From the NCBI GenBank assembly GCA_903851235.1, contig CAINNR010000015.1, positions 11,327 through 75,326 of the forward strand: a stretch of DNA of 64,000 nt, given 5' to 3'. Source of the DNA: an uncultured Candidatus Berkelbacteria bacterium (GTDB lineage Bacteria; Patescibacteriota; UBA1384; XYA2-FULL-43-10; CAINNR01). The notes under the pieces are model-generated. The model ran no database searches. It saw only the letters and a program-made list of their open reading frames with translations, and was not told where the DNA came from. Position numbers and translations under genes: made by a program. Below are positions 15,663 through 48,947 of this stretch, piece by piece (positions within the stretch are counted from its first letter, which is position 1; each line of letters starts with the position of its first letter).

Positions 15663-15693
15663 AGATTTGTCCTTAATTATTTTATGATTAATA

Positions 15694-16413: not shown

Positions 16414-16446
16414 AATTTACCTCTGTAAATATATTAACACGAGATG

Positions 16447-16679: not shown

Positions 16680-16757
<78 letters not shown>

Positions 16758-16772
<15 letters not shown>

Positions 16773-17015: not shown

Positions 17016-17123
17016 ATAATTTCTTGATCGATTTAACTTGGCTACGCTTGGATTATAGCTGATAGTTTGATAAGTTTCAATAAAAAAAATCCTCAGATTA
17101 ATGCGGATTTTTTAATAAAAATT

Positions 17124-17360: not shown

Positions 17361-17369
17361 TTTTTTTTC

Positions 17370-17597: not shown

Positions 17598-17668
17598 AGT
17601 TTAACTTAAGATAAACTTTGTGTCAATAACTATAAATACAGTGTGATAGTTCAGTAATCTGACAATGA

Positions 17669-21865: not shown

Positions 21866-22307
21866 TTATTCACATGGCTTTTTAAACTATTAGTCTTTAA
21901 ATATACAATAATCATAATAATAAGGGCTGTTGATAACTGGATAACAGTAAATTTAATCCCAAATAACTAGTGTCTGTGGTTGATAAACTGTTAATAAAAC
22001 GGTTAACAAAGCTGTTAATTACCCGGTAGGTTGTTAATAACTTTTAAAATAAATAGTTAAATTGATGGTAGTATAGTATAGACTGTGGATAACTACCAAA
22101 GTTATCAACAGGGCTGTTAATAACTCTGTGGATAACTACACTATTTGATTAGGGAATCAGTGGTAATTTATTGCAAAAGTTATCAACAAGATAATAAATT
22201 ATAGATTGTAAAATATTAAATTATAATAGCGGAAATAATTATTAACAAATCATTTAATCATTGCTATTTAATATTTTAACTTCATTATTTATCTAAAAAG
22301 GAGAATT
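21866..22307. promoter_or_regulatory. candidate oriC (dnaA-dnaN intergenic region with DnaA boxes and AT-rich unwinding element)
   Basis: Perfect TGTGGATAA at 22084-22092 and 22127-22135, one-mismatch boxes at 21928-21936, 22103-22111, 22180-22188, gggctgtt(g/a)ataac repeats, very AT-rich 22190-22300. Confidence 0.6.
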
Positions 22308-23414: not shown

Positions 23415-23506
23415 CTTAATAAACAGGAGAGTTCAAATGTCAAACGAAGCTTATAATATAAAAATTTTAAATATTTGTCATTTGAATTTCATTCAGCATT
23501 CGATTT

Positions 23507-25219: not shown

Positions 25220-25249
25220 TGACTTTTTAGTTCTCATATGCTATAATTG
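25220..25249 (+). promoter_or_regulatory. near-consensus sigma70 promoter for second high-GC ORF
   Basis: TTGACT (25220-25225), 18 nt spacer, TATAAT (25244-25249). Confidence 0.45.
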
Positions 25250-25314
25250 GGCGTTATGGTGAAGTTGCGCGAGGCAATCACCAAACAGTACGATTGAAAA
25301 GGACTGATCGAATA

Positions 25315-25914
25315 ATGAAAAAGACTTTGGTTGTTATACTGGTTCTTGCCGTACTGGCCGTTCCAGCGCTCGCGAAGGATCGCGGGCACAACGGAGGAGG
25401 GGACAAACGCGGCGGTGGAGAGCACCATGGACGTCCGGCGATCACGCTGGGCAGTGTCCTGGGCGCGGCAGCGGGTTTGTACCTGCTGTCGCGTATTGAT
25501 CGCTGCGTGCCGGAGTATATGCCGGCACCGTGCCTGCCTGTCTACCAGACGCCGGTGTACGGACCGGTGTTGCAGGATCCCGTTTGCCAGTTGCCGGGGT
25601 ACGGCGGTATTGGTCACACCGGTCGTTACGACGTGCCCTGCGTTGTCGAGTCGCAGGGCAACCGCATGATCGTCAACCGGCCCTATCGGCCGGGGACCCA
25701 GCTGACGGTGGAGGGCGAGTGGGTGACGGACCCGAACACTTTGCAGCCGCTGTATAGGAGGGAGCAGGGGTCGTTGGTTGTTGTTACATCCAACGGAGCC
25801 ACCTCTCTCTGCGACGTATTGCGTGGTGGCGCAAATCGCGGAGACGATATCATTGTCGTCGCCACCCCCTCTCCTGTGCCAGCACCGGCCACGGCACCGG
25901 TATATCAGCCGTAA
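25315..25914 (+). CDS. high-GC ORFan: secreted Cys-containing protein
   Basis: Roughly 60% GC. Signal peptide MKKTLVVILVLAVLAVPALA. Gly/His-rich segment, six Cys, Pro-rich C-terminus. Confidence 0.5.
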   Translation: MKKTLVVILVLAVLAVPALAKDRGHNGGGDKRGGGEHHGRPAITLGSVLGAAAGLYLLSRIDRCVPEYMPAPCLPVYQTPVYGPVLQDPVCQLPGYGGIGHTGRYDVPCVVESQGNRMIVNRPYRPGTQLTVEGEWVTDPNTLQPLYRREQGSLVVVTSNGATSLCDVLRGGANRGDDIIVVATPSPVPAPATAPVYQP

Positions 25915-25922
25915 GAACACAA

Positions 25923-25960
25923 GCGCTCCCCGACAGATCATGTCCGGGAGCGCTTTTTTC
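25923..25960 (+). terminator. rho-independent terminator
   Basis: gcgctccc-cgacagatcatgtcc-gggagcgc followed by TTTTTT. Confidence 0.65.
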
Positions 25961-26001
25961 ATTTCAATTAAACACACTAAGGTGTGGTATACATTGCTGT
26001 G

Positions 26002-32000: not shown

Positions 32001-33246
32001 TGTAATTTCCACTTGCCAGTTGTCGAAGATTGGCATTTAGGCTGGAATAGTCTGGTGGTGGCGAGGTATCATAGCCGGAGGAGGTTTGCCAGGCAAGACT
32101 TATTGGTGTCGCCGGTAATTTTGTTTTATCATCAGAGCCGATTCGTTTCTTCTTTATCAGTGTGCACTTAATATTGTCTACGGCGGAAATGTCAACCGCT
32201 TCACCCTTATAATGAGCGGAGAGATTACTGGCGGTTTCGGCGTCGGAGAAAACCAAATCGCCCTGACTGGCTCCGGCGGAATCGATAACCTCGGCTTGTC
32301 CGGTCGCTGAAGCGATTGTTGGATCGGCGCTGAGAGCATTCTTATCTGCGCTGGAGACATCGCTAACTGTGGTCAGCGAGGATTTACTTGAGCTGGTGTT
32401 CTGAGCGATCTGTTGATAAATTGCCGTTGATTCTCTTGAAGTTTGTTTGGCATCGCGGTTGTAACCGTTACGAATTCGCAAAACCTTGATCAATTCGTGA
32501 CCGGCGCCACCTTGATCCTTTGGTGTAACCAGATTAACCAAAAGTTCCAGAACACGGCGATCAATTACAACTTTATTTTGGGCGTTATCAATTATCGCAT
32601 TGACTGAAGTTTGGTCGTATTTCAGCATGTCGGCGGCTTGATTTTGATCGACACCGGCGATGCAGGCGAAATTCGGCAGATCATTTTTCAGATTCGAAAC
32701 GATGTTGGTTCGCGCAGTATTCTGGGCCGTGGTTATCAAATTTTGGTAGCCGGTCGGGTCGGCGGTTTTCATTGTTGCAATATCAGCAATCGTTTTACCG
32801 CTCGCCGCTGCCAGTGAATCATCATGATTGGCAAAGTCAGGAATAACATTTCCTAAACAGGATAATGTTCGAATATCCTGCAAATCCGAGGGGTTGAAAA
32901 CCAGTTTAGGTGAGGAGGAAATGTTTTCTGTCGCCCAGAGAAACCCACCGATGCCACCATTTTCGCCCTCCAGGTAGTTGTTGCTGGTAAATTGCATTAG
33001 TGACTTAACCGATGCTGGCAAATTATCATTGATCGTTGGTACATTTATTCCAACATCAATCCCACCAACTTGGTCACCTTCACTATCAATTGCTTCTATC
33101 GGGTTTTGGTCTTGATTATCATTGGACACGGCGGGAGAATCAACCGGATCGGCGTGAGCACTTTGAATATACACAATTAAATTCAGCGGCAAAATAATCG
33201 CCAAAATGTTGAAGATGACTAAACTTTTTTTCAGAAAAGGTTTCAT
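26002..33246 (-). CDS. giant (2414 aa) secreted, C-terminally membrane-anchored surface protein with degenerate xLxLP repeats
   Basis: Signal peptide MKPFLKKSLVIFNILAIILPLNLIVYIQSAHA; about 15 instances of (L/A)(N/G/A/H/D)LP(x)(N/G/S) repeats (DLNLPRQ, KLNLPWG, ALNLPTN, SLALPAG, RLNLPQN, VLNLPSN, LGLPAGT, ALGLPSG ...); hydrophobic segment near C-terminus; start overlaps the M23 gene stop by 1 nt. Confidence 0.7.
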   Translation of the reverse strand: MKPFLKKSLVIFNILAIILPLNLIVYIQSAHADPVDSPAVSNDNQDQNPIEAIDSEGDQVGGIDVGINVPTINDNLPASVKSLMQFTSNNYLEGENGGIGGFLWATENISSSPKLVFNPSDLQDIRTLSCLGNVIPDFANHDDSLAAASGKTIADIATMKTADPTGYQNLITTAQNTARTNIVSNLKNDLPNFACIAGVDQNQAADMLKYDQTSVNAIIDNAQNKVVIDRRVLELLVNLVTPKDQGGAGHELIKVLRIRNGYNRDAKQTSRESTAIYQQIAQNTSSSKSSLTTVSDVSSADKNALSADPTIASATGQAEVIDSAGASQGDLVFSDAETASNLSAHYKGEAVDISAVDNIKCTLIKKKRIGSDDKTKLPATPISLAWQTSSGYDTSPPPDYSSLNANLRQLASGNYIDLLDQLGISVDSTTDLSKAGFSDIVGLIGKSLIGEMLNSPNMAISGTDFADTIKKIGGMALADDLNLPRQAFINANLADVNDLEAKIGEAQLEKKLNLPWGSIQGNNLNEILINTGERHVESALNLPTNTLSSSITDPTSLRLVIGRRTIENDLALPAGAFGTDTNFKKLETVAGQRKIDLVYQNPTSVDEKLGLGLNNYSAQYKSGALPPDAYATLVANKILADSVYSFASSTAAANAARLSVDSTSNSITTASANARMTDILAGTNLASNFQQIGADTLAQAFNGDSDVRAALVQWFNNKLTSSDCAVPSVATVTITIAGTTTTKVVTLPESQFMTTYGLSRGDFFRLFGCSNVNPQPVLKSLGQTALYNGIANSSAVKQAEASYLAQHPEITSALKTVDFYKTRIQLIQTKTAKIQSDWAGVTSSDANIGIFKTNIASAKSEVEKADTNGLSSGIQAISVTRNSAVNFDQASGALKNSVAANQSLKDKANTTALDFADIAQAVEEILTGKPQSSISSLQLSDLGSIGVQNTNDSTSASSGTQISAASLALMLAGKMTPENFLISIGANKIESSLDLPKNSIYYYATFIKNKTDSSNIDGQDAFFQSIGQAQLEETLHLPPNFFQGGTPGTLATLSDVRDHVSKVWGISSAEAGAQVMRALNLPADISSITGASSFASGSQVALAAGNLDTSLALPAGTSLKFLSGQSVSTDTLGSSDAELIAGRLNLPQNVIDTFTRVKTSAQSLTNGLNQNYANLITYNAHNGFTSQIASPTTTGSCPVGFSYTKQNGITFSVSSQIVDNSYVYADASGTHAFPSINEARSYAESNASSQVDFVKALSQGLASNPAVPNSFDAATAATYQSELNSFLSTPSKAAAFSSDELANISNKLNIPVTTLQNLFNRKDLLANLSQKPINPYLETIGKRTAESRITTAVFAGMGVTVAGMKIDASDIFDLLSGNGTLAVDKIGSKYLESQLGVGSNQVINIIQSTSSIIRNCSLANLGANFVGGMLGLGTVSLSGNIYENIGGAKIEKVLNLPSNSFRGSTLQELMDNIGPVAFARAFQLPPSEILTPDAITNLSLAASIAEQSIASQYQLAESHVNYPASTANIAPIALTNPALEKNITSTLNLAFNGSSADAFSTSNPTQSITLYQTTNFLNQVSGIDSQLGLPAGTTQQLLTSKITPDDYRHDVANTVIGLTPTGIDTWGKLLGIDSATLGKIDGFTNTFQRIKACGSKTIIGTSAATSCDYGAIFNNFSQVFGIDLDSKLGLSAGTIGRIITNPEQAAASLLLSGIEKLDNSLGLDPTAGASFTAAYIGLGGPLPYSDGWKTGLTTFRASDSIPTTGHFGAISISSSADRWEYYGQQIGEQLVGDYLSKIGIIATPSPGSGNYAGMPKTQDLILQSTNMLVHGDLRVLEITAAVKSAEALHIYNGSTTANLPAYFRITYEDIYYSIMGNPTLEKSYVDSATNNYLTNLNKANPIASVTETAEMAGSPATTLYASQCAPGSTAMGNTCYDPTNPTASSYSTYAAYDAASTGFAQDYPANPTVDPVAMMAAVQKNSQSIEDLNSVQEAARKQADTVTKNNLLWRMADAKLYQVDQNIPAGFVKTMYSGNGVQRTAMLMSYAKNALGTLSFNGVSYNKLDLGIDLYNSLTSFFQNPKGFDLDTMVKNGKMANLDSWIDGKLGNLLGFQLQPGTFTALAYGLKNGNFTADITIPGVGTPIKSLENIYKDWGISKITGWADKALGLPSGTAFTIYTTYREIVAANAAISSANMAVAGAADAATGGAAEAKNLVTANKQLADAKGNLSNVESAGIAFVVNLVFSKQIGQFETAVGLVPGTGSMLVSMLITGFNPISVAIFVLMNLFGVYKTEVTCTADGYYPGVDAKPDPSVSDNGNLGTFNGLDPTAKKSGYITAAQYKAKTLAGDVLALSERTGDALAIPSQIMTGRQEDVDYWQYKVDDVICSKVGGCSGSRAGLWVNPQTTNYTHIGF

Positions 33247-33248
33247 AA

Positions 33249-34673
33249 TTACGGAGTTTTATTTAAAACGCTCAAATCACGGACGTATAAATACTCGCCG
33301 ATAACATTGTATTTTTTATTACTGCTGTGAAAATTGGCTACGTCTTCGGCGGTTGTGGTAACGGCGTGATTATCACAAAGAAGTTCGAAGTGAAGGTGAG
33401 GGTGATTCAGACCGGTCCAACTTGCGCCAATTTTTTGACCGACGGTTACATCGTCACTGCTGGTTACACTTTGCATATGGGCGTACACCGCTCTAAAGGT
33501 TTTACCGACGCTGTCTTTGCCTTCAATATATATGTAGTCGCCGGAGTGGTTCCCGCGCTTTGTAATATGACCGGAGAAGGCGGCGTAAACCGGTGTGCCA
33601 CCCGAATCGCCAATATCAGTGGCGTCATTGGTGCATTTGTTATTGTTGATGAATGTGCCATGTCCGGGAACCGATTCGCATCTCATAAACGATCCACCAT
33701 GCAATGTGCTGTTAAATCCCTTTACATCTTTTGGACTGATTGGATAGGCGGTTTCTCCGCTGAAGTGAAAAGGAACCGTGGCGAAGATATCCAAAAGTTG
33801 CCCGACGGCGGTGACGATTTTCAGGCCGGCGGCATTTTCTTTCGCATCGCCTTGCGGCAGCGTTTGAAAAGCTTTGACTAGTCCGACAATTTCATCAATC
33901 TTTGCTGAAATTTTTGCTTTGGTTGTAGAGTCATAGTTGCTTAGAGGCGGCGAATTCAGATCATTTTTCATTGCCGCCAAGTCACCTTGCAATCCGGAGA
34001 GGACATCGGCTGTTAATGACTTGGTGACATCGCTGTTTCCGCTCAATGCCAAAATTTTGGAAATCCATGGGCGATCATGCAAGATATCGGTGGCTTCTAC
34101 TGGGCTTGAACCGTTGACGTTCGGTGTTTGGAGGGCGCGAATAAGGAAAACCAGTGCGACGACAATGATAACTATTCCGACGATGGCGAGCAAAATCGGT
34201 AACCAATATCCGGCCGTTGTGGCGGCGATTTTAGTTCCGATTTGAGCCGCCCATTTTGTTGCTGATCCAACGGCTTTTTTCACCGCATCGCCAGCGACAT
34301 CGGCTAGCGGTTTTGCGGCGCGTTTAGTCGCTGTTTTTTTCTCATCTTCGGCTTGTTCTTTGGCTTTTTCTTGCGCCGTTTCGCGCGGCTGTACCGCCGG
34401 ACCACCGGGTTGAGCCTCCTTGACCGCTGCTGGCGTAAAAACATCATCCGATTTAAATTCCGGCACCTCGGCTTGCTGAATTTGCTCCTCAGGCGTGCCC
34501 GATTTTACCTTTGCTGTTTCATTTGCATTATCATCGGTTTTCGGTTGATGAGCATCTTCGATTTCTTCTTCATCAATATCAAAATCGGCCGAAGTTTCCG
34601 TCGGAACATTAATTTGAGCCCGTTTAATATCGTCGGCGACCCTCCGTTTGTACTGATCTGGCGACTCAGCCAC
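33249..34673 (-). CDS. membrane-anchored M23 (LytM-type) metallopeptidase
   Basis: Acidic disordered cytoplasmic N-terminus, one TM, C-terminal HxxxD (HGGSFMRCESVPGHGTFINNNKCTND), DIGDSGGTPVYAAFSG and HLHFEL motifs. Confidence 0.7.
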   Translation of the reverse strand: MAESPDQYKRRVADDIKRAQINVPTETSADFDIDEEEIEDAHQPKTDDNANETAKVKSGTPEEQIQQAEVPEFKSDDVFTPAAVKEAQPGGPAVQPRETAQEKAKEQAEDEKKTATKRAAKPLADVAGDAVKKAVGSATKWAAQIGTKIAATTAGYWLPILLAIVGIVIIVVALVFLIRALQTPNVNGSSPVEATDILHDRPWISKILALSGNSDVTKSLTADVLSGLQGDLAAMKNDLNSPPLSNYDSTTKAKISAKIDEIVGLVKAFQTLPQGDAKENAAGLKIVTAVGQLLDIFATVPFHFSGETAYPISPKDVKGFNSTLHGGSFMRCESVPGHGTFINNNKCTNDATDIGDSGGTPVYAAFSGHITKRGNHSGDYIYIEGKDSVGKTFRAVYAHMQSVTSSDDVTVGQKIGASWTGLNHPHLHFELLCDNHAVTTTAEDVANFHSSNKKYNVIGEYLYVRDLSVLNKTP

Positions 34674-34723
34674 TGATCCCTCCGTTTCAAATTAGTCGAA
34701 TGAGTCTAATCGGACCAATTGGA

Positions 34724-36049
34724 CTAATTTGAAATTAATTTAACAAAATACAATTTTCCGGCCGAAGTGAAAACCGCTCCAGATTTGTCATCACTCAAAG
34801 AAACTTCGCTGACCGTTGAATTGCCTTGACCGGCAAAGTAAAAATCGGAAGTTTTCCCATCAATTAAACCTACAACTATCATTTTACTCTCCGCGGAATC
34901 GATTGGCAAGAAAATTTGATCCGGATTTTTCCATAATTTGACATCCGAAGCGCGAGCGGCGATTCCCAAATCACGATTATTACTGCCATCTGAGTTTATT
35001 ACCGAAAGAGTTTGTCTCAGCGGATTTTGCGGATTGTTGGAAAATGTCGAGTAAATAATTTTTTTGCTGTCAGAGCTAAAAACCGCTTCTTTTTGGTTGC
35101 CGGCTGTGTTTAGTGGCGTGACTACTTTGGTATAGACATCCATCAGATAAATTTTGTTTTGATTGAAATCAGCGTTTCTTGGAATAATCAGCAGATATTG
35201 TGAATCGGGTGAAAAGGCGAGGTAGGGGTTCTCGATGTTAAGCTCGGCCAAATTTGCCGCTCGGTAAATGTTTTGATTACTGGCATCGGAAAAAATCAGT
35301 GATCGCTCACCACCGGGCGGGGCGTAATAATAGGCGAGGCGCGAACCATCGGGGGCCCAAACTATGTCGCCGACATTGTTACTGAAAAGCGTCTCGCTTT
35401 GATTGATAAAATCGTACTTTTTGAAATCCAATAAATTAACTGTTGTGCCGGTTTTTACCAAAATCAAATTTTTGTCCGGCGACCAGATTATCTTTGATTT
35501 CGGGTCGATCGGTGTCGAGGTGATTTGCTGGTTAGTAGCAACTGTCGCACCGCCGGAATTATCAATATCCAGAGTTGATAAATAGAATAAATTATTGCTA
35601 AGGCTCTGATAAAAAACCTTGTTATCGGAAATCGCGATGTGAGCGGCTGAGTCAGCGATTTTATTCGGCTCCGGCGCTTTGACTAAATCAATTTTTTTTG
35701 AATAATTTTGTCCGCGTGATAATGTGATTTCCTCTTTGAAGCCGACGTAATTATCGGCGTCGACGCGCAAAGTGTGTTTACCCAAACCGGTGACGAAACT
35801 GGCCGAGCCGTTCAACAGCTGGGCCGGTGAATTGTCCAGTGTGACGATGGCGTTTGTCGGTGCGACTTCAACCGAGACTTTGGCGTGGATGAAAAAGAGA
35901 AAATAAATCAGCGCAGCAAGGAAAATAAAAAATCCGATCAAAACCATCCGGAATATTAGAGTTTGTTGTTTTTGTTTTATCTTTCCCATAATATTTACTT
36001 CGGGCATCCGGGAGTTGTATCTGCTGGTAATAATTTGAAATCTGGCCAA
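34724..36049 (-). CDS. membrane-anchored PEGA-domain plus TolB-like (PD40/WD40-like) beta-propeller protein
   Basis: N-terminal TM; PEGA-like VEVAPTNAIVTLDNSPAQLLNG..GKHTLRVDADNYVGF; repeated SPD/APDG blades (IIWSPDKN, IVWAPDGS, LAFSPDSQ, VFSSDSKK). True start probably a downstream Met (complement 36007 or 35989), since the listed start overlaps the upstream gene. Confidence 0.5.
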   Translation of the reverse strand: MARFQIITSRYNSRMPEVNIMGKIKQKQQTLIFRMVLIGFFIFLAALIYFLFFIHAKVSVEVAPTNAIVTLDNSPAQLLNGSASFVTGLGKHTLRVDADNYVGFKEEITLSRGQNYSKKIDLVKAPEPNKIADSAAHIAISDNKVFYQSLSNNLFYLSTLDIDNSGGATVATNQQITSTPIDPKSKIIWSPDKNLILVKTGTTVNLLDFKKYDFINQSETLFSNNVGDIVWAPDGSRLAYYYAPPGGERSLIFSDASNQNIYRAANLAELNIENPYLAFSPDSQYLLIIPRNADFNQNKIYLMDVYTKVVTPLNTAGNQKEAVFSSDSKKIIYSTFSNNPQNPLRQTLSVINSDGSNNRDLGIAARASDVKLWKNPDQIFLPIDSAESKMIVVGLIDGKTSDFYFAGQGNSTVSEVSLSDDKSGAVFTSAGKLYFVKLISN

Positions 36050-37413
36050 GATATCTGACTGGTATCATAATTTCCACCGTATTGGAAGTGCATTGTGTCG
36101 CAAGTGCAGAAAAATTTTCCACCCCAAAAGAAACCGTCTTTTTGGAAAATATCACTAACAGTTTTTGGTATATTAGTCGAGCAGCTAGAACTATCCCTTG
36201 CTTGACCGCCGGAGATTGAACTTCGTTTATTGTTTGGGTTTTGGTTAGGGTTTATATCAATTGCTGTCCCGAATCCATGTGGGCTGATTGTGCCTTTGCG
36301 ATTGGTATTTTCTCTAACACTAGTTCCTTGAACGTCGCTAAAATTGTAAGTTACACCAGCGGCTTTCAAATCGGCCTGAACTTTATCAAGCGCCGAGGTT
36401 ATTGCTTTGTTGACTCCACCGGAGATGTTGTGACCCATGAACGAGTAAGAAACAATATTTTTTCCCGGGGTGCCGACGGCATTCTGAACATCTGTAATAT
36501 TTTTCCAAATTCCAACTTGGTCATATTGCCCCAAACTGGTTCCGACGGTACGAAAATCCATTGAGGAGTTGGAGCCGGAGGTGGCACCACAATTATCAGA
36601 CCCTCCGGTTGCACCGGAACCGGCGGCTGTAGTAAATCGCCATCTCGTTTTTGCGTCGCTCTCGGCGCCCAAACTTGTCATTGCGATTTGCGATATGTCA
36701 AGACCAACCCTATTAGCCGGTCGTGCATTATTCAAGACATATCCCGAGTCAGTATAGACATATGGTCCGGAGTCGATGACTGCCAGCACCACAGTTTTCC
36801 CGTTATATTCAACTTCAATTCTTGGGCACTGGTTAACATTTCCATGGCAGGCGACTGGTATGCTTGTTAGGGGAAGCGCAGCAAAGTATTCGGTCGGTCG
36901 ACTACAGCCGGTTGGAAGACCGCTTCTGCCGACGCAGTTGTCGACATCATCGGTGCATGTCATACACTCCTCCATGTCTTTAGCTGATGATAATGCCGTT
37001 GAGTCTTTATGGCACCATTTATACTTCATATCTCGGTTATGTTGGGATTTATCACATTTGCCGCCAAAGGTTGTTGTCACTATGTTTTCATGCCAATCGG
37101 TTGTAGCGCCAGCGGGAATTGCAACTGTTCCGGACAAACCACTGTTCATGCAAGCTTGGGCGCTGTTGCCATTTGGATCGCCGATTGAGCGAACGTAAAA
37201 AGCGATTGCAGAACCCCAAGCGGCGGCTGCCGACAGACCCATAAAAAGAACAACAAGAATCGAGACGATTATTGCTTTTCGCCACTTATTCTTATCACCA
37301 CCTATGGTGAAAAAGTTTTTGACTTTATCAATTGGGTTCGAGGATTGGCCACCAGTGGTGGCATTTGGCGTTTCGTTTTGTTCTGTTGTTTCATCAGGCA
37401 TAAAATTTACCAA
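35995..37413 (-). CDS. bifunctional cell-wall hydrolase: RlpA-like DPBB domain + M15 (LAS-family) peptidase domain
   Basis: TM anchor; PTEYFAALP...CPRIEVEYNGKTVVLAVIDSGPYV...GLDISQIAMTSLG matches the RlpA/DPBB core (V.V.N..NGKSVVVRVNDRGP); C-terminal HGFGTAIDIN and WGGKFFCTCDTMHFQY match M15 peptidase metal-binding motifs. Confidence 0.6.
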   Translation of the reverse strand: MVNFMPDETTEQNETPNATTGGQSSNPIDKVKNFFTIGGDKNKWRKAIIVSILVVLFMGLSAAAAWGSAIAFYVRSIGDPNGNSAQACMNSGLSGTVAIPAGATTDWHENIVTTTFGGKCDKSQHNRDMKYKWCHKDSTALSSAKDMEECMTCTDDVDNCVGRSGLPTGCSRPTEYFAALPLTSIPVACHGNVNQCPRIEVEYNGKTVVLAVIDSGPYVYTDSGYVLNNARPANRVGLDISQIAMTSLGAESDAKTRWRFTTAAGSGATGGSDNCGATSGSNSSMDFRTVGTSLGQYDQVGIWKNITDVQNAVGTPGKNIVSYSFMGHNISGGVNKAITSALDKVQADLKAAGVTYNFSDVQGTSVRENTNRKGTISPHGFGTAIDINPNQNPNNKRSSISGGQARDSSSCSTNIPKTVSDIFQKDGFFWGGKFFCTCDTMHFQYGGNYDTSQISWPDFKLLPADTTPGCPK

Positions 37414-37480
37414 TTACTTTCAATCAAAATATAAAATATATATGATAGATTTCTGATAATCTCGAAATGATTTTGAAAAA

Positions 37481-39274
37481 TTAATTATTCGGGTAAAGCG
37501 AATCACATTTGGCTTTTTGCTGGGTTAACGAATTGGTCTGCGTTCTTGCCACCAAATCCCAGATAGGAATTTTGGAAAGATCCGGTTTTTGATTGGTGTA
37601 ATTTGTCCAAATTATCTGGCATTGCTCAAGCGTCGGGTTACCGGTTGAGCCAAACCATGTGAGAGGGTTATACCAAACTGTTTGGCTGGTTGACGATGGA
37701 GTTGTTGTGGCCGCTTGGCTGGTTGACGACTGGACCAAAGTTGTCCCAGTCGCTGATGGCGACAAAGTGCTACCGGAGGTTGGAGAACTGGGATCCATCA
37801 GCCCAGGTTGAGCAACCGGCGACGTTGTCGTGGTTGAGACGCTGGCGGTGGTTTTTGCTGCCCCACTCTTAATATTGACCAGTCCAATGTAGTCGTTATA
37901 ACCGTGACCAATTGCTCTTTTTTTGTAAATCGACACACCCCATTTGTAAAGTCTGGCTTTGTCGTCGTCGGTCAGACCGGCGGTATTTAGCGGGATGGAT
38001 AGAGTTTTTGGTAGATTGTCATAATCAATAATAAACGAACCAACTTCCTTGAATGTCAGCGGCGACTTAAAATAACCGCCGTAACCCAGGTCGTGCCACG
38101 GAGTGGCATTGATAACGACACCGAATTCAGTTTTGGCATTGACCTTTGGTGTTGCCCCATTCACTTTGGACAAACCTTTTGGACTCGGGTAGGCATCGCC
38201 GATCGTAATATTCAGTGTATTGCCACTTACGGTCATCGAAGTTTTATCATAACCGCTGGCGCGAAAATATCCCAAATAACCATCTTTGTAAAAAGTGTTG
38301 TTCATGTAAGTCGAATTCATCGCCATCATTACTTTGTCCAGCGCCAAGATACAGGTCATTTCGGTGTAAAGTTGCGTGCTTTGTCCGTTAACCGCGGTTA
38401 CTTTATGGTCGGCGCCACGGGTGATATCAATAGAATTTACATTGGTTTTGTAACCGGAAGCGCTAGAACTTACGGTATATTTTCCGTTCGGTGCGGCAAC
38501 TTCAGCCACCCAATAATTGCCGAAATTATAAGTTTTCTTTACAGCTGATATGCCGCCAGTTGCGTTGCTGGCGGAAATAAAATGTCCTTTGTCAATTTTG
38601 TTAGGGTTTTTAAAATTGGCGTCGTAACTTTCCGGGTCGACTGGAGCGACCGTGCCGCGAACCGCATAATCGGTGACAATTACTTTTATGCCGGAGTTAT
38701 CGGGAACAGCGTCTTTTAACTGCGTGCATTTCCCTGACATTGGGATGCCAATACAACCGTGAGTAGCGCCAGAAGAAAAATGAATACCTAAATGGCGACA
38801 CTTTTTCCCGTCCTTAGTTTCTTGATTAGCGGGGCAAACCGGATCACCGCCAAAAGTTGGGTTGCCGTCTAAGTTTAAGAACCATTCTCCACTTAAAGCT
38901 CCGGTCAGAGGTTTGGTCCAATCCGCGGCGCTGTAGACACCCAACGATGTCATACAAGTGGCATCAGTAGGAGCTCCTGATGTTCCGCATCCGGCAATAC
39001 TTGGTTGATAAATACTTTCTTTAATTTTTGTTGGCGAAGTGCCGACATTAACCGGAGTGATAATAATGGGACCGCTGCTATTATAGCCAGTTAGCGCACC
39101 CTCGCCTGTTTGAGGATTTATGGCCACAACAATCAACTGAATGTTTCCGGCATTTGTACTTGGGGACAATGTATCGGCGGCGATTTTATTGAGATAAATG
39201 TATATTCCCAGAGCAATTAATCCCAAAAAAACTACCGACAAACCGACAAACAAGAAAACTTTTGATCGTTTCAT
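37481..39274 (-). CDS. membrane-anchored L,D-transpeptidase (YkuD)-like domain protein with Ser/Thr-rich C-terminal region
   Basis: TM anchor; RHLGIHFSSGATHGCIGIP resembles the YkuD catalytic H...S.GC(I/V) motif; C-terminal low-complexity S/T-rich tail. Confidence 0.4.
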   Translation of the reverse strand: MKRSKVFLFVGLSVVFLGLIALGIYIYLNKIAADTLSPSTNAGNIQLIVVAINPQTGEGALTGYNSSGPIIITPVNVGTSPTKIKESIYQPSIAGCGTSGAPTDATCMTSLGVYSAADWTKPLTGALSGEWFLNLDGNPTFGGDPVCPANQETKDGKKCRHLGIHFSSGATHGCIGIPMSGKCTQLKDAVPDNSGIKVIVTDYAVRGTVAPVDPESYDANFKNPNKIDKGHFISASNATGGISAVKKTYNFGNYWVAEVAAPNGKYTVSSSASGYKTNVNSIDITRGADHKVTAVNGQSTQLYTEMTCILALDKVMMAMNSTYMNNTFYKDGYLGYFRASGYDKTSMTVSGNTLNITIGDAYPSPKGLSKVNGATPKVNAKTEFGVVINATPWHDLGYGGYFKSPLTFKEVGSFIIDYDNLPKTLSIPLNTAGLTDDDKARLYKWGVSIYKKRAIGHGYNDYIGLVNIKSGAAKTTASVSTTTTSPVAQPGLMDPSSPTSGSTLSPSATGTTLVQSSTSQAATTTPSSTSQTVWYNPLTWFGSTGNPTLEQCQIIWTNYTNQKPDLSKIPIWDLVARTQTNSLTQQKAKCDSLYPNN

Positions 39275-39312
39275 AATCTCCCCAAAATTAATTTAATTTA
39301 TTCATAATAATA

Positions 39313-40815
39313 TTATCGAACCGGTCCAACCGTTGTACCGCTGACAAATTGCCAATTAAATCTATCAATGATTTTGGGATCGCCGCCCAAATATGTCATC
39401 GCGGTCGGACTGATGTCCAAGCCGGCCGGATTGCTTTTTTGTGGTGAACAGCCGCCGACATTTATCCCACTTTCGACCGATGGTCGATCCGGTCCACAAA
39501 TATAACTCTTATCGACGGTATTGCACGGACCGCTGTCAACAACCGCCAGGATCACCGATTTTCCATTTGCCGGGTTTGTAACTTTAATCCGCATACATTT
39601 ATTTATATCGCCGTTGCACTGTTGTGCGACTGCTCCGTATGGCAAAGAGGCGAAATATTGGGTTGGACCATCGCAACCGGTAGAAATGTGACTGCCACCG
39701 GCGTAGCACGGATCACCATTGTCAGCGCACTTTCCATCTTTGCCACAACCACCGAACTGAGTTGTCCGAATATTTGTTCGAATTAAGTCTTGGCAAGCGC
39801 AGACAAAAGTTGCTGGGAAACTTTTGAGCCCGGAATAAGTAATTGGGGAGACAACATTATAACTTCGATCTTCGCTTCGTGGTACCAGAATATCCGGGTT
39901 TAGATCACCTCGCCCTGGAATGAGCGGAACGATACGGGTTTTCACAGCGAAACCGTTGATCCAACTTTGGTATTTGGCATCATCAGACAAACCGGATAAA
40001 TCCGGATCGAATTTTAACGAAGTTGTCTTGATGACCGATTCAAGTGGAAGTTTAATAGTCTGCAAACTTTTGCCTGAAGATGCAATCTGTTTGGCGCCGG
40101 ACCAATTTTCGGACACGGCATAAACATCAAAATAGACATCGGCTTTTGGCACTGCGCTGGTTCCACCGCTAATTATCCAACTATTTCCAAGTTTTATCGG
40201 CACGGTAAAAGTTGCGGTTGACGGGATTTGTTTATTTTGTACTTGGCTTAATGAAATATAATTGCGCAGATAATGGACGTCATTTTTGCTCAAATGATAA
40301 AAACCTTGGTAGCCGGCAGCGTAAGCGCCCCAATTATAAAGACTGTACATCAAATCAGTTTCGCGATCGACAAAATAATTATTTTGCACGCTTCCGCCGT
40401 TTGTCAGTAAGGTTGAAATTACCGCTGTTCCGGTTGGGCTCTTAAGGTGAACATCGGCGGCTCTTTTTGCGTTGTATTTTCCACCGGAGAGATAGACGGC
40501 GTAACTGCATGAGTTGGGGCTCGGAACGCTAATACTGTAATTACCGGATGAATCAGTTGTTGCCGAATAACTTTTATCGCTACAATCTACCAGTGTGACG
40601 GTAACTCCGATCGCAACTTTGCCATAGATGGCGCTTTCCAAACTATAGTTGACGGCATCCAAACTCTCAAAAACTTTTCCTTTAAAGACTGCGCTGTTAA
40701 GTTGATCGGCTTTAATAAAAGCGAGAAAAAATATCGCGATTACGAATAATACGCAGGCAACCACAATTAAGGATACTGTTGTCGAAACCCTGACATTTTT
40801 TATTTTCATAATCAT
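39313..40815 (-). CDS. membrane-anchored carboxypeptidase-regulatory-like domain + RlpA-like DPBB domain protein
   Basis: TM anchor; GKVAIGVTVTLVDCSDKSYSATTDSSGNYSISVP (CarbopepD_reg-like); C-terminal PTQYFASLP...CMRIKVTNPANGKSVILAVVDSGP...AGLDISPTAMTYLGG DPBB core. Confidence 0.55.
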   Translation of the reverse strand: MIMKIKNVRVSTTVSLIVVACVLFVIAIFFLAFIKADQLNSAVFKGKVFESLDAVNYSLESAIYGKVAIGVTVTLVDCSDKSYSATTDSSGNYSISVPSPNSCSYAVYLSGGKYNAKRAADVHLKSPTGTAVISTLLTNGGSVQNNYFVDRETDLMYSLYNWGAYAAGYQGFYHLSKNDVHYLRNYISLSQVQNKQIPSTATFTVPIKLGNSWIISGGTSAVPKADVYFDVYAVSENWSGAKQIASSGKSLQTIKLPLESVIKTTSLKFDPDLSGLSDDAKYQSWINGFAVKTRIVPLIPGRGDLNPDILVPRSEDRSYNVVSPITYSGLKSFPATFVCACQDLIRTNIRTTQFGGCGKDGKCADNGDPCYAGGSHISTGCDGPTQYFASLPYGAVAQQCNGDINKCMRIKVTNPANGKSVILAVVDSGPCNTVDKSYICGPDRPSVESGINVGGCSPQKSNPAGLDISPTAMTYLGGDPKIIDRFNWQFVSGTTVGPVR

Positions 40816-40821: not shown

Positions 40822-42969
40822 CTACATACTTTCTTGGTCGCCGGGGGTTTGGCCGGATTGGGCCAGAAGTTGCTCCGGATTGGTGGTGATTACCTGATCC
40901 TCGGAGTAGGAAGCTATGACTTTGATCGCCACATGATTCAAGCCGGCAAAAAACAAGCCTTCGCCGACATCGCTTTCCAGGAGAAGATATTTTTCACCCT
41001 CGGTTAAGCCGAAAGTTTCGGCGATGATATCAACTGACGCCGTCGATTGTTTCAAAAGAATTTGCATTGATGAGTTGGAAACAATTGATTTTCCATATCG
41101 TGATGAGAGGAAATCCTCGACATCTTGGCTGATGATCGTTAATCCCAAATAGTATTTTCTGGCGCGTTTCGCCAAGCCGTGGAGGAATTTGGCCGAGTCT
41201 TCGTACTGCATCATCCACCAAGCTTCATCAATAATCATCAACCGGCGACGCATATCCATCCGAATTTTGGTCCAAATATAATTTAGAATCGTGTACATTG
41301 CCACCGGTCGGAGTGCTTCCTCCAAATCACGGACGGAGAAGACGACAAAACCGGGTTTTAGTTCAAAGTTGGTCGGAGCATTGAACAGTCCGGCAAATGT
41401 TCCCTCAACGTACTTTGACAGCCTCCTGGTGATACTTTCGGTGCCGTTCATGTTGGAGAGAACGTTGTAAAAATCCTGCATAATCGGCGGTTCGTTTTTC
41501 TGGCTCTCCGGATCGGTGGTTATATCCTTTAGGGCATATGCTTCGTACAGACCTTTTTCAACCAATGAATCCTCCTCCGGTGTTAAACCGGCAACCATCA
41601 AATTGATCAAACCGTGAACCGAAGAGATATTCGATCGCAGAACATCCTCGCCTGACTCTTTCTCTGGATCGAGTCCGCGCGGCAAATCAAAGGGATTAAT
41701 TCGCTGCTGGGAATTTAGCGAATAGCGTAAATAACTGCCACCGACGGCATCGCAAAGATTTTTGTACTCCGATTCCGGATCGACAATAATAATATCGGTG
41801 CCGAACATCAAACTTCGCAAGGCTTCCAATTTGATCATGTAAGATTTACCCGAACCGGACTTGGCAAAGACGACCGAGTTGGCATTTTCCAGCGAGAAGC
41901 GGTCGAAAATGATCAATGAATTATTGTGGCGATTAATACCGTATAAAATTCCATCCTCCTGGGTCAACTCCGATGAGGTGAAGGGGAAGATTGATGAGAC
42001 TGAGCCGGTGTCCAAATTTCGCAGAACGGAAATTGAGTCGCGCATCATCGGTGCGGTGGAGATAAATCCCTCTGACATTTGTAACAGCGTTTCTTTGGTG
42101 TAAATTAACATTCCACCCAAAGTTGATTCTAACTGTTTAGTTACAGTGTTTAACTCCTCGAGTGTGTGAGCGTAAATCGTAAAGTATAATCCCAATTGGA
42201 AGAGTCGAACCTCACCGCGTTGCAAGACATCACGCAATGATTCAACATCACCAAGCGCAGTTTCCAACTCCGGGTCGCGCGGTTGGCCCTTTTCTTGGGC
42301 AATCATAAGTGATGACTGAATTTTGCCCACTTGGCTTTTCAGATCTTTCATAACATTAGTGGTTTCCAGCGGATGGATGTGCATGCCGATGTCCATTGTA
42401 ATGTCATAATTAATTAGCGGTGAAAGCCAATTGGCGTCAAGATAACGCGGATAGGTGTAGACGAAAAGTGTTTTACAAAATGTGTCACCGAGTTGCAAAT
42501 AATTTGGATTAAGGACGAAGGCCGCCGGCGCAATAATGTCTCGAACAGTTAACATTCCCTCCTGGAAGATTTTTTGCGCTTCCCTGACCTCAAGATTCTC
42601 TTGAGCAATGGTGCGAGGATCGGTGCTGATCGCAGTTGGCTGATCGGTCAAATTGGGTTTACTTGTGGCGAGCGGAGTCGAACCATTGGTCTCACTGGAC
42701 AAATCTGGTTTGGGCGTCAGCGACTGGACCGGAATGGCGACTTGTGGCGGCAATTTGAATTTTGTCGTCACATTCGCCTGATCCGAAAGACCGGTTTTGT
42801 TACCTGTCTTTTTCACTTGATCGGCTTGCCAAAAATCAGCCGAGTCGTTAGTCGGCTGTACCGGATTTGCCGAATTCACCGGCGCGCCAAAAGTAGCAGC
42901 AGGTGTTGCGTTGATTGGAGTACTTGCTGGCGGAGTATCGGGAATTAAATTTTGGTTTGTTTGGGCCAT
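40822..42969 (-). CDS. virB4: VirB4/TraE/PrgJ-family T4SS ATPase (C-terminal ATPase part)
   Basis: Disordered 130-aa N-terminus, then DUF87-like region; Walker A AKSGSGKSYMIK, Walker B MIIDEAWWMM, C-terminal motifs typical of VirB4/CagE. Confidence 0.85.
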   Translation of the reverse strand: MAQTNQNLIPDTPPASTPINATPAATFGAPVNSANPVQPTNDSADFWQADQVKKTGNKTGLSDQANVTTKFKLPPQVAIPVQSLTPKPDLSSETNGSTPLATSKPNLTDQPTAISTDPRTIAQENLEVREAQKIFQEGMLTVRDIIAPAAFVLNPNYLQLGDTFCKTLFVYTYPRYLDANWLSPLINYDITMDIGMHIHPLETTNVMKDLKSQVGKIQSSLMIAQEKGQPRDPELETALGDVESLRDVLQRGEVRLFQLGLYFTIYAHTLEELNTVTKQLESTLGGMLIYTKETLLQMSEGFISTAPMMRDSISVLRNLDTGSVSSIFPFTSSELTQEDGILYGINRHNNSLIIFDRFSLENANSVVFAKSGSGKSYMIKLEALRSLMFGTDIIIVDPESEYKNLCDAVGGSYLRYSLNSQQRINPFDLPRGLDPEKESGEDVLRSNISSVHGLINLMVAGLTPEEDSLVEKGLYEAYALKDITTDPESQKNEPPIMQDFYNVLSNMNGTESITRRLSKYVEGTFAGLFNAPTNFELKPGFVVFSVRDLEEALRPVAMYTILNYIWTKIRMDMRRRLMIIDEAWWMMQYEDSAKFLHGLAKRARKYYLGLTIISQDVEDFLSSRYGKSIVSNSSMQILLKQSTASVDIIAETFGLTEGEKYLLLESDVGEGLFFAGLNHVAIKVIASYSEDQVITTNPEQLLAQSGQTPGDQESM

Positions 42970-43932: not shown

Positions 43933-44349
43933 CTAATTTGGACTAGTCCGTCCGCGTTTATCTATTACACTTGCCAGCTTTTCAATATCGGCACGCGAAT
44001 ATCGTTTGTTGGCGTACGGATCGGCAACTCTCTCAACTTTCGGCTGATAAATCTCAACCCGGACATTATTTTCGCTTTTATGCCAAAGTCTGGTTTTCGG
44101 GTTGGCGGCATAGGCCATGGCGTTTTTCAGAAACTGACCAAAGGAGCGACCATTGACTTTAACGAAACAGATGCAAAATGTCAGGATAAAAATCGGCAAA
44201 GCCAGAACCCAGTTGATCGGGGATGGAAGTGAACTAATGGCGATATAACCGGCGCCGCCACCGAGAACGGCATAGACAAACTGGACCATCGAAAGTGGTC
44301 CCAAAATTTTATCCTCGATATCGATTTTTTGTGGCACTTTGAACTGCAT
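43933..44349 (-). CDS. PrgI/VirB3-like small two-TM T4SS protein
   Basis: 138 aa, conserved MQFKVPQKIDIEDKILGPLSMVQFVYAVLGG start and two adjacent TM helices as in the PrgI family; position upstream of VirB4. Confidence 0.4.
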   Translation of the reverse strand: MQFKVPQKIDIEDKILGPLSMVQFVYAVLGGGAGYIAISSLPSPINWVLALPIFILTFCICFVKVNGRSFGQFLKNAMAYAANPKTRLWHKSENNVRVEIYQPKVERVADPYANKRYSRADIEKLASVIDKRGRTSPN

Positions 44350-46655: not shown

Positions 46656-48947
46656 TTATTTTTCCTCCGTTTCAAATTTAGCAGATGGGTCAATTTTCAA
46701 AGCAATCTCTCTGGCAGTGAGTAAATCGTCACGAGCAACACTTTCTTGACCGGCTTTGGCTAATCGCTCAAGTTCATTTGGGTCGCCGCCGTTTTTTAGC
46801 TCCTGAGCGACGAATTGAAGTGTGGCTTCCTGTCTTTCAGCCATCCTGATTGCTTGCACACCGGTAGATCTTGCAACACGAGTCTGGAGGATTTTGAGTT
46901 GTTCAGCAGCTGCTGGAGTAATTCCTTTTATTTGAACATCGAGTTCTGGAACATGCCCTATTCCAAAGCCAACACTGGTTGGCTTAAACATGTCGGCCAT
47001 GGTTTTTGCACTATCGATACCTCCCTCACCTTTGTTTTTCAATGTTTCATTGATATCATCCAGGCGACTTTCAATCCCGGCCATATCTACTGGGACTGCG
47101 GAAGATGCCCGGCTTTCCTCCTCTTCCTCCTCGGCGTCATAATCATCACCCGCACCAGCGGGTTGTCGTTCTGCTCGTTGTCGAGCCCTTTGTGCTGCTT
47201 GACGTTCTGCATTAGATTGAGGAACTCTTGCGCCTCTATCAACACTTACGTCACGATGGTCTGTCACCATATAGCCACCTTCGCCCGGTTTGCGAAAAAA
47301 TTCCTCAATTGTTTTAACTTCACCTTCCGGCATACTTCCGTCTTCCAGTTCTGCCAATCGTTTGTTATTTACTCTTCTTCTGGCTTCCTGAGTTGATGCA
47401 ATGTAGGCGGCAATTTCGTCTCCTCTTTTTTCTGGATCATTTAGGTTGACGCCCTTGCCACCCTGATCCTTTGATTTCATTAAATTTACCTTGAAATAAT
47501 CCTCAATACCTTTTCTATATTCAGGTTCGGTTGAAACTCTATAAACATCTGCCCGTTCTCTGGTTCCATCGGCGTTCCTGTGATACAACTGTCTTTCGGC
47601 AAGATCTTTAAGTTTAAACTGGTCTTTGTAATTTGGACCGGATTCTTCTGCGCCAAGATCGCCAAACACAGCTTTTAGCCGTCCCTTGGTGACTGGGTCT
47701 TTAGCCCGGACATCTTCCAACCACTTTGGCCCTTTGTCTTCCAAGAAGTTCATGATATTAATTTTTTTCCTGATTTCTTCTTGTTTTTTTATCTTTCTAG
47801 CGTACAGATCTCTTGTGACCGTGCCCTTACCAATTGCCCGGTCTATTGATCGCACGACAGGCAATTTTCTCGCGCCTTCTCTTGCCCAGTTTTTTCCAAC
47901 GCCGTATTGAAAACTGACATAATCTTTTGCGGCTTTAACTCCGACTCCTCCAGTTGCGTTCCAAGCTGCTCCGCCGGTTTTGGACCAGGCTTTTTTGCCG
48001 AAGTTTGCCCAAGCGCCGACGGCGGCACCACCGGCTTTAAACGGCGAAGTGATCGCCATATACAAGCAAAGACCGGCAAAACCCATTTGCAAAACCCATG
48101 ATCCATCAGGTCCGATAGTATTTAGAAACTCGCCTGCCAGCCAGAGCCAGAAAACGGAAATTACCGGCATAAAAACCCATTTTAAGAATTGACTCCACCA
48201 CTGTTGAAAGTATTTTTTGGTAATCGGCAAAATCATTGCCATAAAAGCCGCCGGAGAAATGCAAATTAGAAAATACAGGAAATAATTTCGGATTAAAAAG
48301 ATGAAGGCCAAAATTGCGACTAAAACGGCGCCGACTGCGACGAAAATTTGTTTTAGAATGTAGACGAGAATGTATCCTGGGTAATTGCCGGTAAAACCGG
48401 CCGGACCTGTTGGCGATTGTTTTATCAAACCATTAAATGCTCCGGTGACATTGCCGGCGTTGTCACCGGTTAAGAAGGCGGAGATTGCTACATTGCCAAT
48501 ATCCAACAACATTCTAGCGATTAAGAAGCTGAAATTTGCCAGAATTATAGCGATAATAAATGTTGGTAGGAATTTTTTGACCGCGTACGAATCCAGCTGA
48601 ATTCGCAAGATATTCATAAAGGCGACCCAAATCAGAACGGCAAGAACCAAGGAATCCACAACTTTCATGATTGTGTACCAAATTGTGACCGTGGTCGCGC
48701 CCATGCCGGTAAAGCACAACGAAGCGTCTTTGACAGTGCCGGTTGCGGCTTTGACAGTCGAATCGCAACCATCTTTTGGCATCATAACTTGATAAATCGG
48801 TTCGACCGTTGGCAATGCGGCTTGAGCTTTGAGCGGAGAAAAGAAAACAAAAAAGCTGAATAGAAAAATCGTTACTGAAAAAATTAGCGTTTTGTGAAGA
48901 AAAATTAGGTTTTTGATTTTTTTATTCATATTTGCAACCGATTTCAT
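46656..48947 (-). CDS. VirB6/TrbL-like polytopic membrane protein with extended hydrophilic C-terminal domain
   Basis: N-terminal signal/TM, at least 7 TM helices in the first 330 aa, then about 400-aa charged C-terminal region (extended VirB6 type); position in the T4SS cluster. Confidence 0.55.
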   Translation of the reverse strand: MKSVANMNKKIKNLIFLHKTLIFSVTIFLFSFFVFFSPLKAQAALPTVEPIYQVMMPKDGCDSTVKAATGTVKDASLCFTGMGATTVTIWYTIMKVVDSLVLAVLIWVAFMNILRIQLDSYAVKKFLPTFIIAIILANFSFLIARMLLDIGNVAISAFLTGDNAGNVTGAFNGLIKQSPTGPAGFTGNYPGYILVYILKQIFVAVGAVLVAILAFIFLIRNYFLYFLICISPAAFMAMILPITKKYFQQWWSQFLKWVFMPVISVFWLWLAGEFLNTIGPDGSWVLQMGFAGLCLYMAITSPFKAGGAAVGAWANFGKKAWSKTGGAAWNATGGVGVKAAKDYVSFQYGVGKNWAREGARKLPVVRSIDRAIGKGTVTRDLYARKIKKQEEIRKKINIMNFLEDKGPKWLEDVRAKDPVTKGRLKAVFGDLGAEESGPNYKDQFKLKDLAERQLYHRNADGTRERADVYRVSTEPEYRKGIEDYFKVNLMKSKDQGGKGVNLNDPEKRGDEIAAYIASTQEARRRVNNKRLAELEDGSMPEGEVKTIEEFFRKPGEGGYMVTDHRDVSVDRGARVPQSNAERQAAQRARQRAERQPAGAGDDYDAEEEEEESRASSAVPVDMAGIESRLDDINETLKNKGEGGIDSAKTMADMFKPTSVGFGIGHVPELDVQIKGITPAAAEQLKILQTRVARSTGVQAIRMAERQEATLQFVAQELKNGGDPNELERLAKAGQESVARDDLLTAREIALKIDPSAKFETEEK

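Follow-up and report, generated by a model that had tools for sequence, protein, structure and literature searches.

Five consecutive minus-strand genes at positions 33249-40815 of a 64,000-nucleotide stretch of contig CAINNR010000015.1 (hereafter the window), which comes from an ultrasmall Berkelbacteria-like Patescibacterium, encode membrane-anchored cell-wall proteins, here called A to E, within the operon of a type IV secretion system (T4SS). This locus is a Patescibacteria-type chromosomal T4SS near the replication origin (oriC), derived from monoderm conjugation machinery of the mating-pair formation class MPF-FATA. C, D and E form the conserved core of this clade's locus, while A and B are lineage-specific additions. 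The five genes probably act together as the cell-wall module of this T4SS, locally opening and reshaping the cell's own wall around the channel. Among Patescibacteria the locus is an enlarged form of an arrangement already documented as essential, and its gene count is unusual only when compared with Gram-positive conjugative systems.

The original prediction on this DNA had described an unusual battery of five wall-remodelling proteins inside a T4SS operon and had measured it against Gram-positive T4SSs. The five successive open reading frames (ORFs) are where it placed them, each encoding a single-pass protein, and they do lie inside the T4SS operon, flanked on one side by VirB4/PrgI and on the other by a giant protein whose synteny is conserved. 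They also outnumber the one multidomain hydrolase that Gram-positive conjugative systems carry, as exemplified by PrgK with its LytM, SLT and CHAP domains (PMC11323569). The Gram-positive baseline, however, was wrong for a Patescibacteria-type chromosomal T4SS next to oriC: the set is atypical against Gram-positive conjugative systems but not against Patescibacteria, where genes for several wall enzymes and for a PEGA protein have been recorded before downstream of virB4. Nor do the five genes make one set, since the battery is a composite of the C, D and E core and two extras, A and B, that have homologues outside the operon in relatives.

Gene order and conservation of the wall proteins

The ORFs of A, B, C, D and E comprise 500, 597, 472, 441 and 474 codons, respectively, and independent assemblies and orthologue lengths indicate likely start sites at 40809 for A, 37401 for C and 35989 for D. 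With these starts, the spacing of the genes is operon-like, with gaps of 12 nucleotides (nt) between VirB4 and A, 38 between A and B, 79 between B and C, 5 between C and D, 50 between D and E, and 2 between E and the giant gene. No terminator-like hairpin was found on the coding strand between the A-E genes. The hairpin beyond the giant gene (Table 1) only matches the consensus, and overall such terminator-like sites were no commoner than in shuffled sequence. The A-B-C order was seen again in two independent metagenome assemblies, which rules out an assembly artefact. Since each of the five proteins contains exactly one strongly hydrophobic segment with Lys or Arg residues before it, all are predicted to span the membrane once and to carry their bulk, including the catalytic parts, outside the cell.

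Gene order was compared across 80 related loci. In ~40 of these, VirB4 is followed, sometimes after an ORF of ~120 codons, by one anchored hydrolase, then by orthologues of D and of E and lastly by a giant protein 1400-2400 residues long, whereas neither A nor B was found at any of the 80 T4SS loci. Co-occurrence of the gene set was accordingly seen for C, D and E, which are syntenic with VirB4 in ~40 genomes, but not for A and B, whose homologues lie outside the T4SS operon in relatives. The ~120-codon ORF is conserved between VirB4 and the first hydrolase in many close relatives and is missing from the window, where A begins directly after VirB4.

The nearest homologue of A, with 56% identity, is protein P0005 of bacterium ADurb.Bin212 (L082/L083 10001-11452), whose gene lies between LeuRS and TsaD rather than after VirB4. 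Its neighbours encode RhuM, FemAB, a Mur ligase, an integrase and PAP2, and a TrbL-like gene lies ~10 kb away. This neighbourhood is syntenic with the 52-62 kb region of the window (compared stretch 57689-61962), and an A-like gene or relic sought between TsaD and LeuRS of the window was not found, only small unrelated ORFs being present there. Since P0005 sits at LeuRS/TsaD and the same neighbourhood in the window lacks A, the A gene has apparently moved ~20 kb into the T4SS operon in this lineage. Among the homologues of B, P0003 is encoded among glycolysis/hydrogenase genes and another lies between a PIF1 helicase and BipA.

Domains and active sites of the five proteins

The five domain assignments of the original prediction all hold, with unequal strength: M15, M23 and PD40 were recognised by Pfam, the double-psi beta-barrel (DPBB) call comes from fold and motifs, and the YkuD call comes through two homologues. 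Alignment of the active sites, which it had proposed as a check, showed intact M15 motifs, a retained YkuD His and Cys and an invariant Asp in the LDIS motif of the DPBB module, but an Asn in place of the first His of M23.

C is the operon's VirB1-like two-module hydrolase and fills the conserved position of first hydrolase after VirB4, which we refer to as slot 1. Its Peptidase_M15_4 domain scored 58.4 bits against a Pfam cut-off of 25, and the zinc-site motifs SPHGFGTAIDIN and CDTMHFQ (H-x6-D plus a downstream His) are kept in four orthologous domains; a hidden Markov model of the DPBB module matched C at E = 8e-57. The N-terminal anchor of C is 42-52% identical to those of slot-1 proteins of relatives that bear other catalytic domains. 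In Pfam scans of 20 slot-1 proteins, all 20 carried a wall-hydrolase domain. A glycan-type first module (SLT, glucosaminidase or DPBB) was detected in seven of them, and seven more, when read directly, showed lysozyme/SLT-like or 3D/DPBB-like motifs. The second domain differed in almost every genome (CHAP, Amidase_3, M15_4, C39_2, Amidase_2, glucosaminidase, M23 or VanY), and even among genomes whose VirB4 is at least 81% identical, five slot-1 catalytic domains were present (CHAP, glucosaminidase, M15, Amidase_3 and C39). The slot-1 proteins of the closest relatives thus keep the N-terminal anchor of C while the catalytic domain swaps, and slot 1 may be a fast-swapping cassette. A glycan-cutter and a peptide-cutter joined on one membrane anchor is also how the monoderm VirB1 equivalents are built.

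The DPBB module of C recurs in A, where it spans residues 341-492 (39340-39795). An alignment of the two with six database homologues covers ~150 Cys-rich residues with 37 invariant positions. Pfam DPBB models gave no match on A and no significant one on C (best, DPBB_1, 13.2 bits versus 28.8), and the CarboxypepD_reg match of A was also sub-threshold (25.8 bits versus a cut-off of 32.3). In an AlphaFold model of A, the DPBB core was of moderate confidence (predicted local distance difference test, pLDDT, 70-88), and among its Foldseek matches in the PDB the compact domains were all double-psi beta-barrels, namely kiwellins, expansin EXLX1, barwin-like proteins and the RlpA-like PA4485 (probability 1.0, E = 2e-3 to 2e-2). 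Using hhalign, the module was placed on the DPBB core of Escherichia coli RlpA with 31% probability, and the series of motifs agreed by eye. The Asp of the LDIS motif is invariant in the module and aligns by eye with VISLS of E. coli RlpA; it may correspond to the catalytic Asp of Pseudomonas aeruginosa RlpA or to EXLX1 D82, at the position that MltA also uses. Single-sequence PDB searches with A, B and C returned nothing useful, and a PDB profile search with the DPBB module returned nothing significant, only a weak match to PA4485 (E = 1.8). A search of a 5.8-billion-protein database with the DPBB-alignment profile gave no matches and missed the alignment's own members too, which looks like a word-index limit for short Cys-rich profiles rather than biology. 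On the fold match and the RlpA motifs, we accept the prediction that A and C carry a double-psi beta-barrel fold.

In B, a YkuD-like domain occupies residues 34-217 (38624-39175), and the C-terminal part consists of a Ser/Thr/Pro-rich linker followed by a helical Cys domain. Neither B nor its isolated domain matched Pfam YkuD (PF03734), its CarboxypepD_reg match was sub-threshold (23.3 bits versus 32.3), and an AlphaFold2 model built from three sequences was unusable (pLDDT 36). The family numbers only five proteins at E <= 0.001 among 1.84 billion cluster representatives. Two of the homologues, P0011 and P0012, have the architecture of B and do pass Pfam YkuD over the homologous region (29.1 and 35 bits versus 23.4), and they match the profile of the B domain at E = 2e-10 and 4e-7 (versus the whole library). 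All five members share an invariant RHxGIH...TxGC, a catalytic-type His...(T/S)xGC motif. When the YkuD-like profile was aligned with E. coli LdtB using hhalign, the best local register was the catalytic IHG...SHGC, at only 2.5% probability and so not significant; no meaningful alignment was obtained with LdtD, and a PDB profile search with the domain found nothing. Since P0011 and P0012 pass Pfam YkuD and share the architecture of B, B appears by transitive homology to be a divergent YkuD-like protein. The fusion of the YkuD-like domain to Amidase_3 in P0003 is a hint that its role may be lytic and not cross-linking.

D is the best-conserved accessory protein of the locus, its orthologues adjoining VirB4 in ~45 loci with 22-64% identity. 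Its PD40 match passes the Pfam threshold (28.8 bits versus 20.9), its PEGA match falls just short (19.9 versus 20.8), and TolB structures were matched using phmmer at E = 4e-5. E, with orthologues in ~20 related loci, scored 50.8 bits against 28.7 for Pfam Peptidase_M23 and matched ShyA and 2gu1 at E = 4e-6 to 8e-6. At its zinc site, HxxxD reads NDATD (HNGTD in 2gu1), so that the first ligand His is replaced by Asn at a position that varies across orthologues, and HxH and the third (YAH) His are kept.

Proposed role and alternatives

For the activities, the substrates, the target wall and the part played by D, we infer the following scheme. The membrane anchors look uncleaved, which points to action close to the cell's own membrane, and A to E, anchored with their catalytic parts outside, would act within reach of the T4SS assembly site. 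There, C, aided by A, would cut a gap in the cell's own peptidoglycan: its RlpA-like DPBB would target the glycan strands, and stem peptides would be the substrate of its M15 zinc peptidase, whose ligand motifs are intact. D, the most conserved extracellular component of a system lacking a recognisable VirB8, could be a wall-spanning scaffold or targeting factor, while E may act as a weak peptidase or, as the LytM domain does in PrgK, as a regulator. E and B would trim, regulate or re-crosslink the edges of the gap, and the opened wall would let channel, pilus and giant surface protein through.

Several observations weigh against this scheme. The DPBB assignment comes from a moderate-confidence model and transitive homology, Pfam making no call on the window proteins, and DPBB domains may be non-catalytic, as in expansins. 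The YkuD call on B is likewise transitive, with no Pfam match on B itself and a failed model, and E lacks one canonical zinc ligand. The homologues of A and B outside the T4SS operon in relatives mean that these two may be general wall enzymes sited here by chance. Finally, if the role were simply to open the cell's own wall, rapid swapping of slot-1 catalytic domains between close relatives would not be expected.

This last point bears on a host-directed role, in which some or all of the enzymes would act on host peptidoglycan where epibiont and host make contact, either for passage of the T4SS pilus or channel or to obtain wall fragments as nutrients. The five slot-1 catalytic domains seen at VirB4 identities of at least 81% would fit differing host wall chemistries, a giant surface protein is encoded in the same operon, and the T4SS and adjacent hydrolase genes are essential for the epibiotic growth of Southlakia epibionticum. 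All five proteins, however, keep a single N-terminal membrane anchor, with no sign of release found; no domain type was tied to any host; and the turnover could be neutral, since cleavage of any bond opens the wall. We consider wall breaching in the host an unlikely function of the module. The wider proposal that slot-1 variability tracks host wall chemistry, such that T4SS-linked enzymes would be a host-range-determining wall-breaching toolkit of epibiotic Patescibacteria and not only openers of their own wall, likewise strikes us as improbable.

RlpA, YkuD, M23 and TolB are classic divisome or wall-maintenance families, and some of the five proteins could be housekeeping autolysins: A, B and perhaps others would serve growth, division or wall turnover of this reduced-genome cell and would belong to the operon only by location, it being in this view a strongly expressed origin-proximal unit. 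The gene for P0005 between LeuRS and TsaD, near FemAB and a Mur ligase in a neighbourhood shared with the window, and the B homologues among glycolysis/hydrogenase genes or next to BipA are what such a role would lead one to expect. Such an account is hard to reconcile with the synteny of C, D and E with VirB4 across ~40 genomes, with ML1 counterparts that are essential alongside the T4SS, or with the way A and B are inserted, at gaps of 12-79 nt with no terminator and in an A-B-C order that recurs in independent assemblies. We give it little chance for the locus as a whole, though housekeeping by location is plausible for A and B and not for C, D and E. It is also conceivable that most of the modules are non-catalytic, the DPBB binding glycan, the M23 domain regulating and the YkuD-like domain binding, so that the set tethers or positions the T4SS and M15 is the sole true enzyme. 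The Asn in E, the Gly that B has where canonical YkuD has Arg after the catalytic Cys, the inactive regulatory LytM and CHAP domains of PrgK, and the non-enzymatic kiwellins and expansins among the best DPBB fold matches all lean this way. Yet the DPBB module keeps the invariant LDIS Asp and the VVDSGP motif common with RlpA and in relatives never stands without a second catalytic domain, the pairing typical of modules that cut glycan, and the YkuD-like His and Cys are invariant across their family; we regard a largely non-catalytic set as very unlikely. We favour a module that opens and reshapes the cell's own wall locally, around the channel of the T4SS.

The surrounding locus and known systems

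The genes on either side of the wall proteins are listed in Table 1. VirB4 has 562 relatives, all in Patescibacteria metagenome-assembled genomes labelled Berkelbacteria or Saccharibacteria, the closest (87% identity) in a Berkelbacteria genome. Its 262-residue partner is syntenic in more than 70 related loci with 34-87% identity, and the PrgI-like gene is kept upstream of VirB4 in nearly all of the 80. The 763- and 617-residue proteins encoded upstream of PrgI are syntenic in many relatives and are probably further T4SS subunits, the former being a candidate VirB6/TrbL-like channel subunit. No relaxase or VirD4 (coupling protein) family was matched among ~45 window ORFs in general family scans. 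The genes dnaA, dnaN and recF are located at 20480-24550, ~1.5 kb beyond the operon end. Between the giant gene and recF, a 247-codon minus-strand ORF (25234-25977) was considered as a counterpart of gene 0004 of the S. epibionticum ML1 locus and rejected as probably spurious, being Arg-rich with no hydrophobic segment and no homologue in the 80 related loci.

Table 1. Features of the T4SS operon in the window, with the wall proteins first.
Feature	Position	Strand	Description
Protein A, 498 residues from likely start 40809	39313-40815	-	Transmembrane anchor, CarboxypepD_reg-like beta-sandwich stalk, Cys-rich DPBB module
Protein B, 597 residues	37481-39274	-	Transmembrane anchor, divergent YkuD-like domain, CarboxypepD_reg-like domain, unknown domain, linker, C-terminal domain
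Protein C, 468 residues from likely start 37401	35995-37413	-	Transmembrane anchor, DPBB module 36625-37107, Peptidase_M15_4 36079-36300
Protein D, 421 residues from likely start 35989	34724-36049	-	Transmembrane anchor, PEGA-like domain 35678-35878, TolB-like beta-propeller 34727-35662
Protein E, 474 residues	33249-34673	-	Charged cytoplasmic tail of ~150 residues, transmembrane segment, helical region, M23/LytM domain 33360-33626
Giant protein, 2414 residues	26002-33246	-	Last operon gene; N-terminal transmembrane/signal segment, C-terminal transmembrane segment(s)
Terminator-like hairpin	25973-25986	-	16 nt past giant-gene stop; possible operon end; only well-placed one
VirB4-type T4SS ATPase	40822-42969	-	Pfam P-loop_TraG 111 bits, plus AAA_10, DUF87
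Conserved VirB4 partner, 262 residues	42981-43769	-	Weak TraC N-terminal likeness; Pfam TraC_F_IV E = 0.014, sub-threshold
PrgI/VirB3-like T4SS membrane protein	43933-44349	-	Pfam PrgI 40.6 bits versus cut-off 27
Polytopic membrane protein, 763 residues	46656-48947	-	At least four hydrophobic segments; Pfam TrbL E = 0.072, sub-threshold
617-residue protein	48944-50797	-	No family match; upstream of PrgI

The giant gene is syntenic in more than 50 related loci, and Pfam gave no match on its product. The N-terminal domain contains the motif SAHYKGEAVDIS at 32185-32220 (minus strand), of which SAHxxGQAVDIS is kept in ~35 orthologues, down to 25% identity. This stretch is reminiscent of the H-x6-D zinc motif found in M15/LAS peptidases and of the M15-fold domain of the large ML1 protein SEML1_0007. 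Pfam, hhalign (12% probability) and a PDB profile search with the N-terminal domain all failed to confirm it as the mark of an M15-like domain.

Elsewhere in the window, a plus-strand gene at 1251-3335, ~40 kb from the VirB4 cluster, encodes a 694-residue protein with two T4SS_pilin (VirB2-like) matches at 58 bits, and a PilB-type T2SSE ATPase is encoded at 5994-7646. Two stretches, at ~12000-18000 and 3966-5090, have a low G+C content (0.35-0.38 versus ~0.45 elsewhere) and contain an AbiEii toxin gene (13634-14350), which an upstream ORF overlaps, as well as genes for a MerR-type regulator, for tRNA-Ser(CGA) at 16682-16772 and for a DUF4143 AAA ATPase; the stretches may be mobile or defence-related DNA.

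New here are the modularity of the hydrolase slot, two protein families, that of the Cys-rich DPBB module and the very rare YkuD-like one, and the apparent recruitment of A and B into the operon. The locus divides the T4SS wall accessories of a second Patescibacteria class into a core (two-module hydrolase, PEGA/propeller protein, M23 protein and giant protein) and dispensable add-ons, and it defines two families that Pfam does not recognise, the Cys-rich DPBB module and the tiny YkuD-like family. These offer concrete targets for biochemistry, including the question of own wall versus host wall, and do not overturn current understanding.

At the level of individual domains, the DPBB module matches RlpA, EXLX1 and kiwellins in fold and shares with E. 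coli RlpA the motifs PTQ..AA.P and I.V.N..NGK.V.L.V.D.GP as well as a conserved Asp in (L/I)D(I/L)S. It differs from RlpA, expansins and kiwellins in an extra Cys-rich insertion with six invariant Cys, in falling below the Pfam DPBB_1 threshold and in its fusion partners in Berkelbacteria, which are M15, CHAP, Amidase_3, C39 or glucosaminidase domains; a SPOR domain is absent. The B family resembles the YkuD L,D-transpeptidases (such as E. coli LdtA-E) in its His...(S/T)xGC, which falls in the register of LdtB, and in the two members that pass Pfam YkuD. It departs from them in that B itself goes unrecognised by Pfam, the His-Cys loop is shorter, Gly replaces Arg after the Cys and the family is extremely small. 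D resembles TolB of the Tol-Pal system, its PD40 beta-propeller matching TolB structures directly by sequence, but it has an N-terminal transmembrane anchor and a PEGA-like domain in place of the TolB N-terminal domain; in contrast with bearers of Tol-Pal, the organism of the window is monoderm, and no Tol-Pal partners were seen.

Among conjugative systems, C resembles the monoderm VirB1 equivalents (PrgK of pCF10, TraG of pIP501 and CwlT of ICEBs1) in being encoded in a T4SS operon and in joining extracellular glycan and peptidase modules to an N-terminal membrane anchor. PrgK of pCF10 combines LytM, SLT and CHAP domains, of which LytM is degenerate and LytM and CHAP are inactive regulators, and it docks on the VirB8-like PrgL (PMC11323569). 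C and E together make up this domain set (LytM plus glycosidase plus peptidase), the LytM domain being degenerate in PrgK as well. In the window, however, the functions are split over several proteins, and the locus is chromosomal with no relaxase nearby. C also has DPBB instead of SLT or GH73, and M15 instead of CHAP or NlpC/P60. Since its domains are DPBB and M15_4, C would be a functional analogue of PrgK, TraG and CwlT rather than a member of their family, whereas slot-1 proteins of relatives do carry SLT, glucosaminidase and CHAP.

The closest counterpart is found within the phylum. Patescibacteria-type T4SSs are related to monoderm conjugation systems, have no relaxase and are often near dnaA (Quinonero-Coronel et al., PMC12102498), and in S. 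epibionticum the homologues of peptidases and lysozyme that are encoded downstream of virB4 are essential (PMC12102498). The role of the patescibacterial T4SS has been called completely unknown (PMC11665869), yet the T4SS is essential for epibiotic growth (PMC10633639). At the T4SS locus of S. epibionticum ML1 (SEML1_0004-0007), the wall genes lie on the strand opposite dnaA-dnaN-recF (Wang et al. 2023 supplementary tables, PMC10633639), in the order prealbumin-like protein, PEGA protein, a protein with two lysozyme domains and a Cys proteinase, 1113-residue protein, VirB4, small protein and PrgI (PMC10633639). The 1113-residue protein has a Hedgehog/DD-peptidase fold, and all listed genes of the locus scored as essential (PMC10633639); essentiality has been shown in ML1 only. 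In ML1 one protein combines two lysozyme-like domains with the Cys proteinase, and the 1113-residue protein ends in an M15-fold domain, whereas the window has DPBB glycan modules, M15 fused to DPBB, a separate M23 protein, a propeller on the PEGA protein and an added YkuD-like protein. Both loci contain a PEGA protein, glycan-cleaving and peptidase modules and a very large protein, with a relaxase or coupling protein recognised in neither, and in both, dnaA-dnaN-recF lie on the strand opposite to that of PrgI, a small conserved protein, VirB4 and then several exported wall-related proteins. Since ML1 has this same layout, a wall-enzyme-rich T4SS operon beside oriC is a known feature of the phylum.

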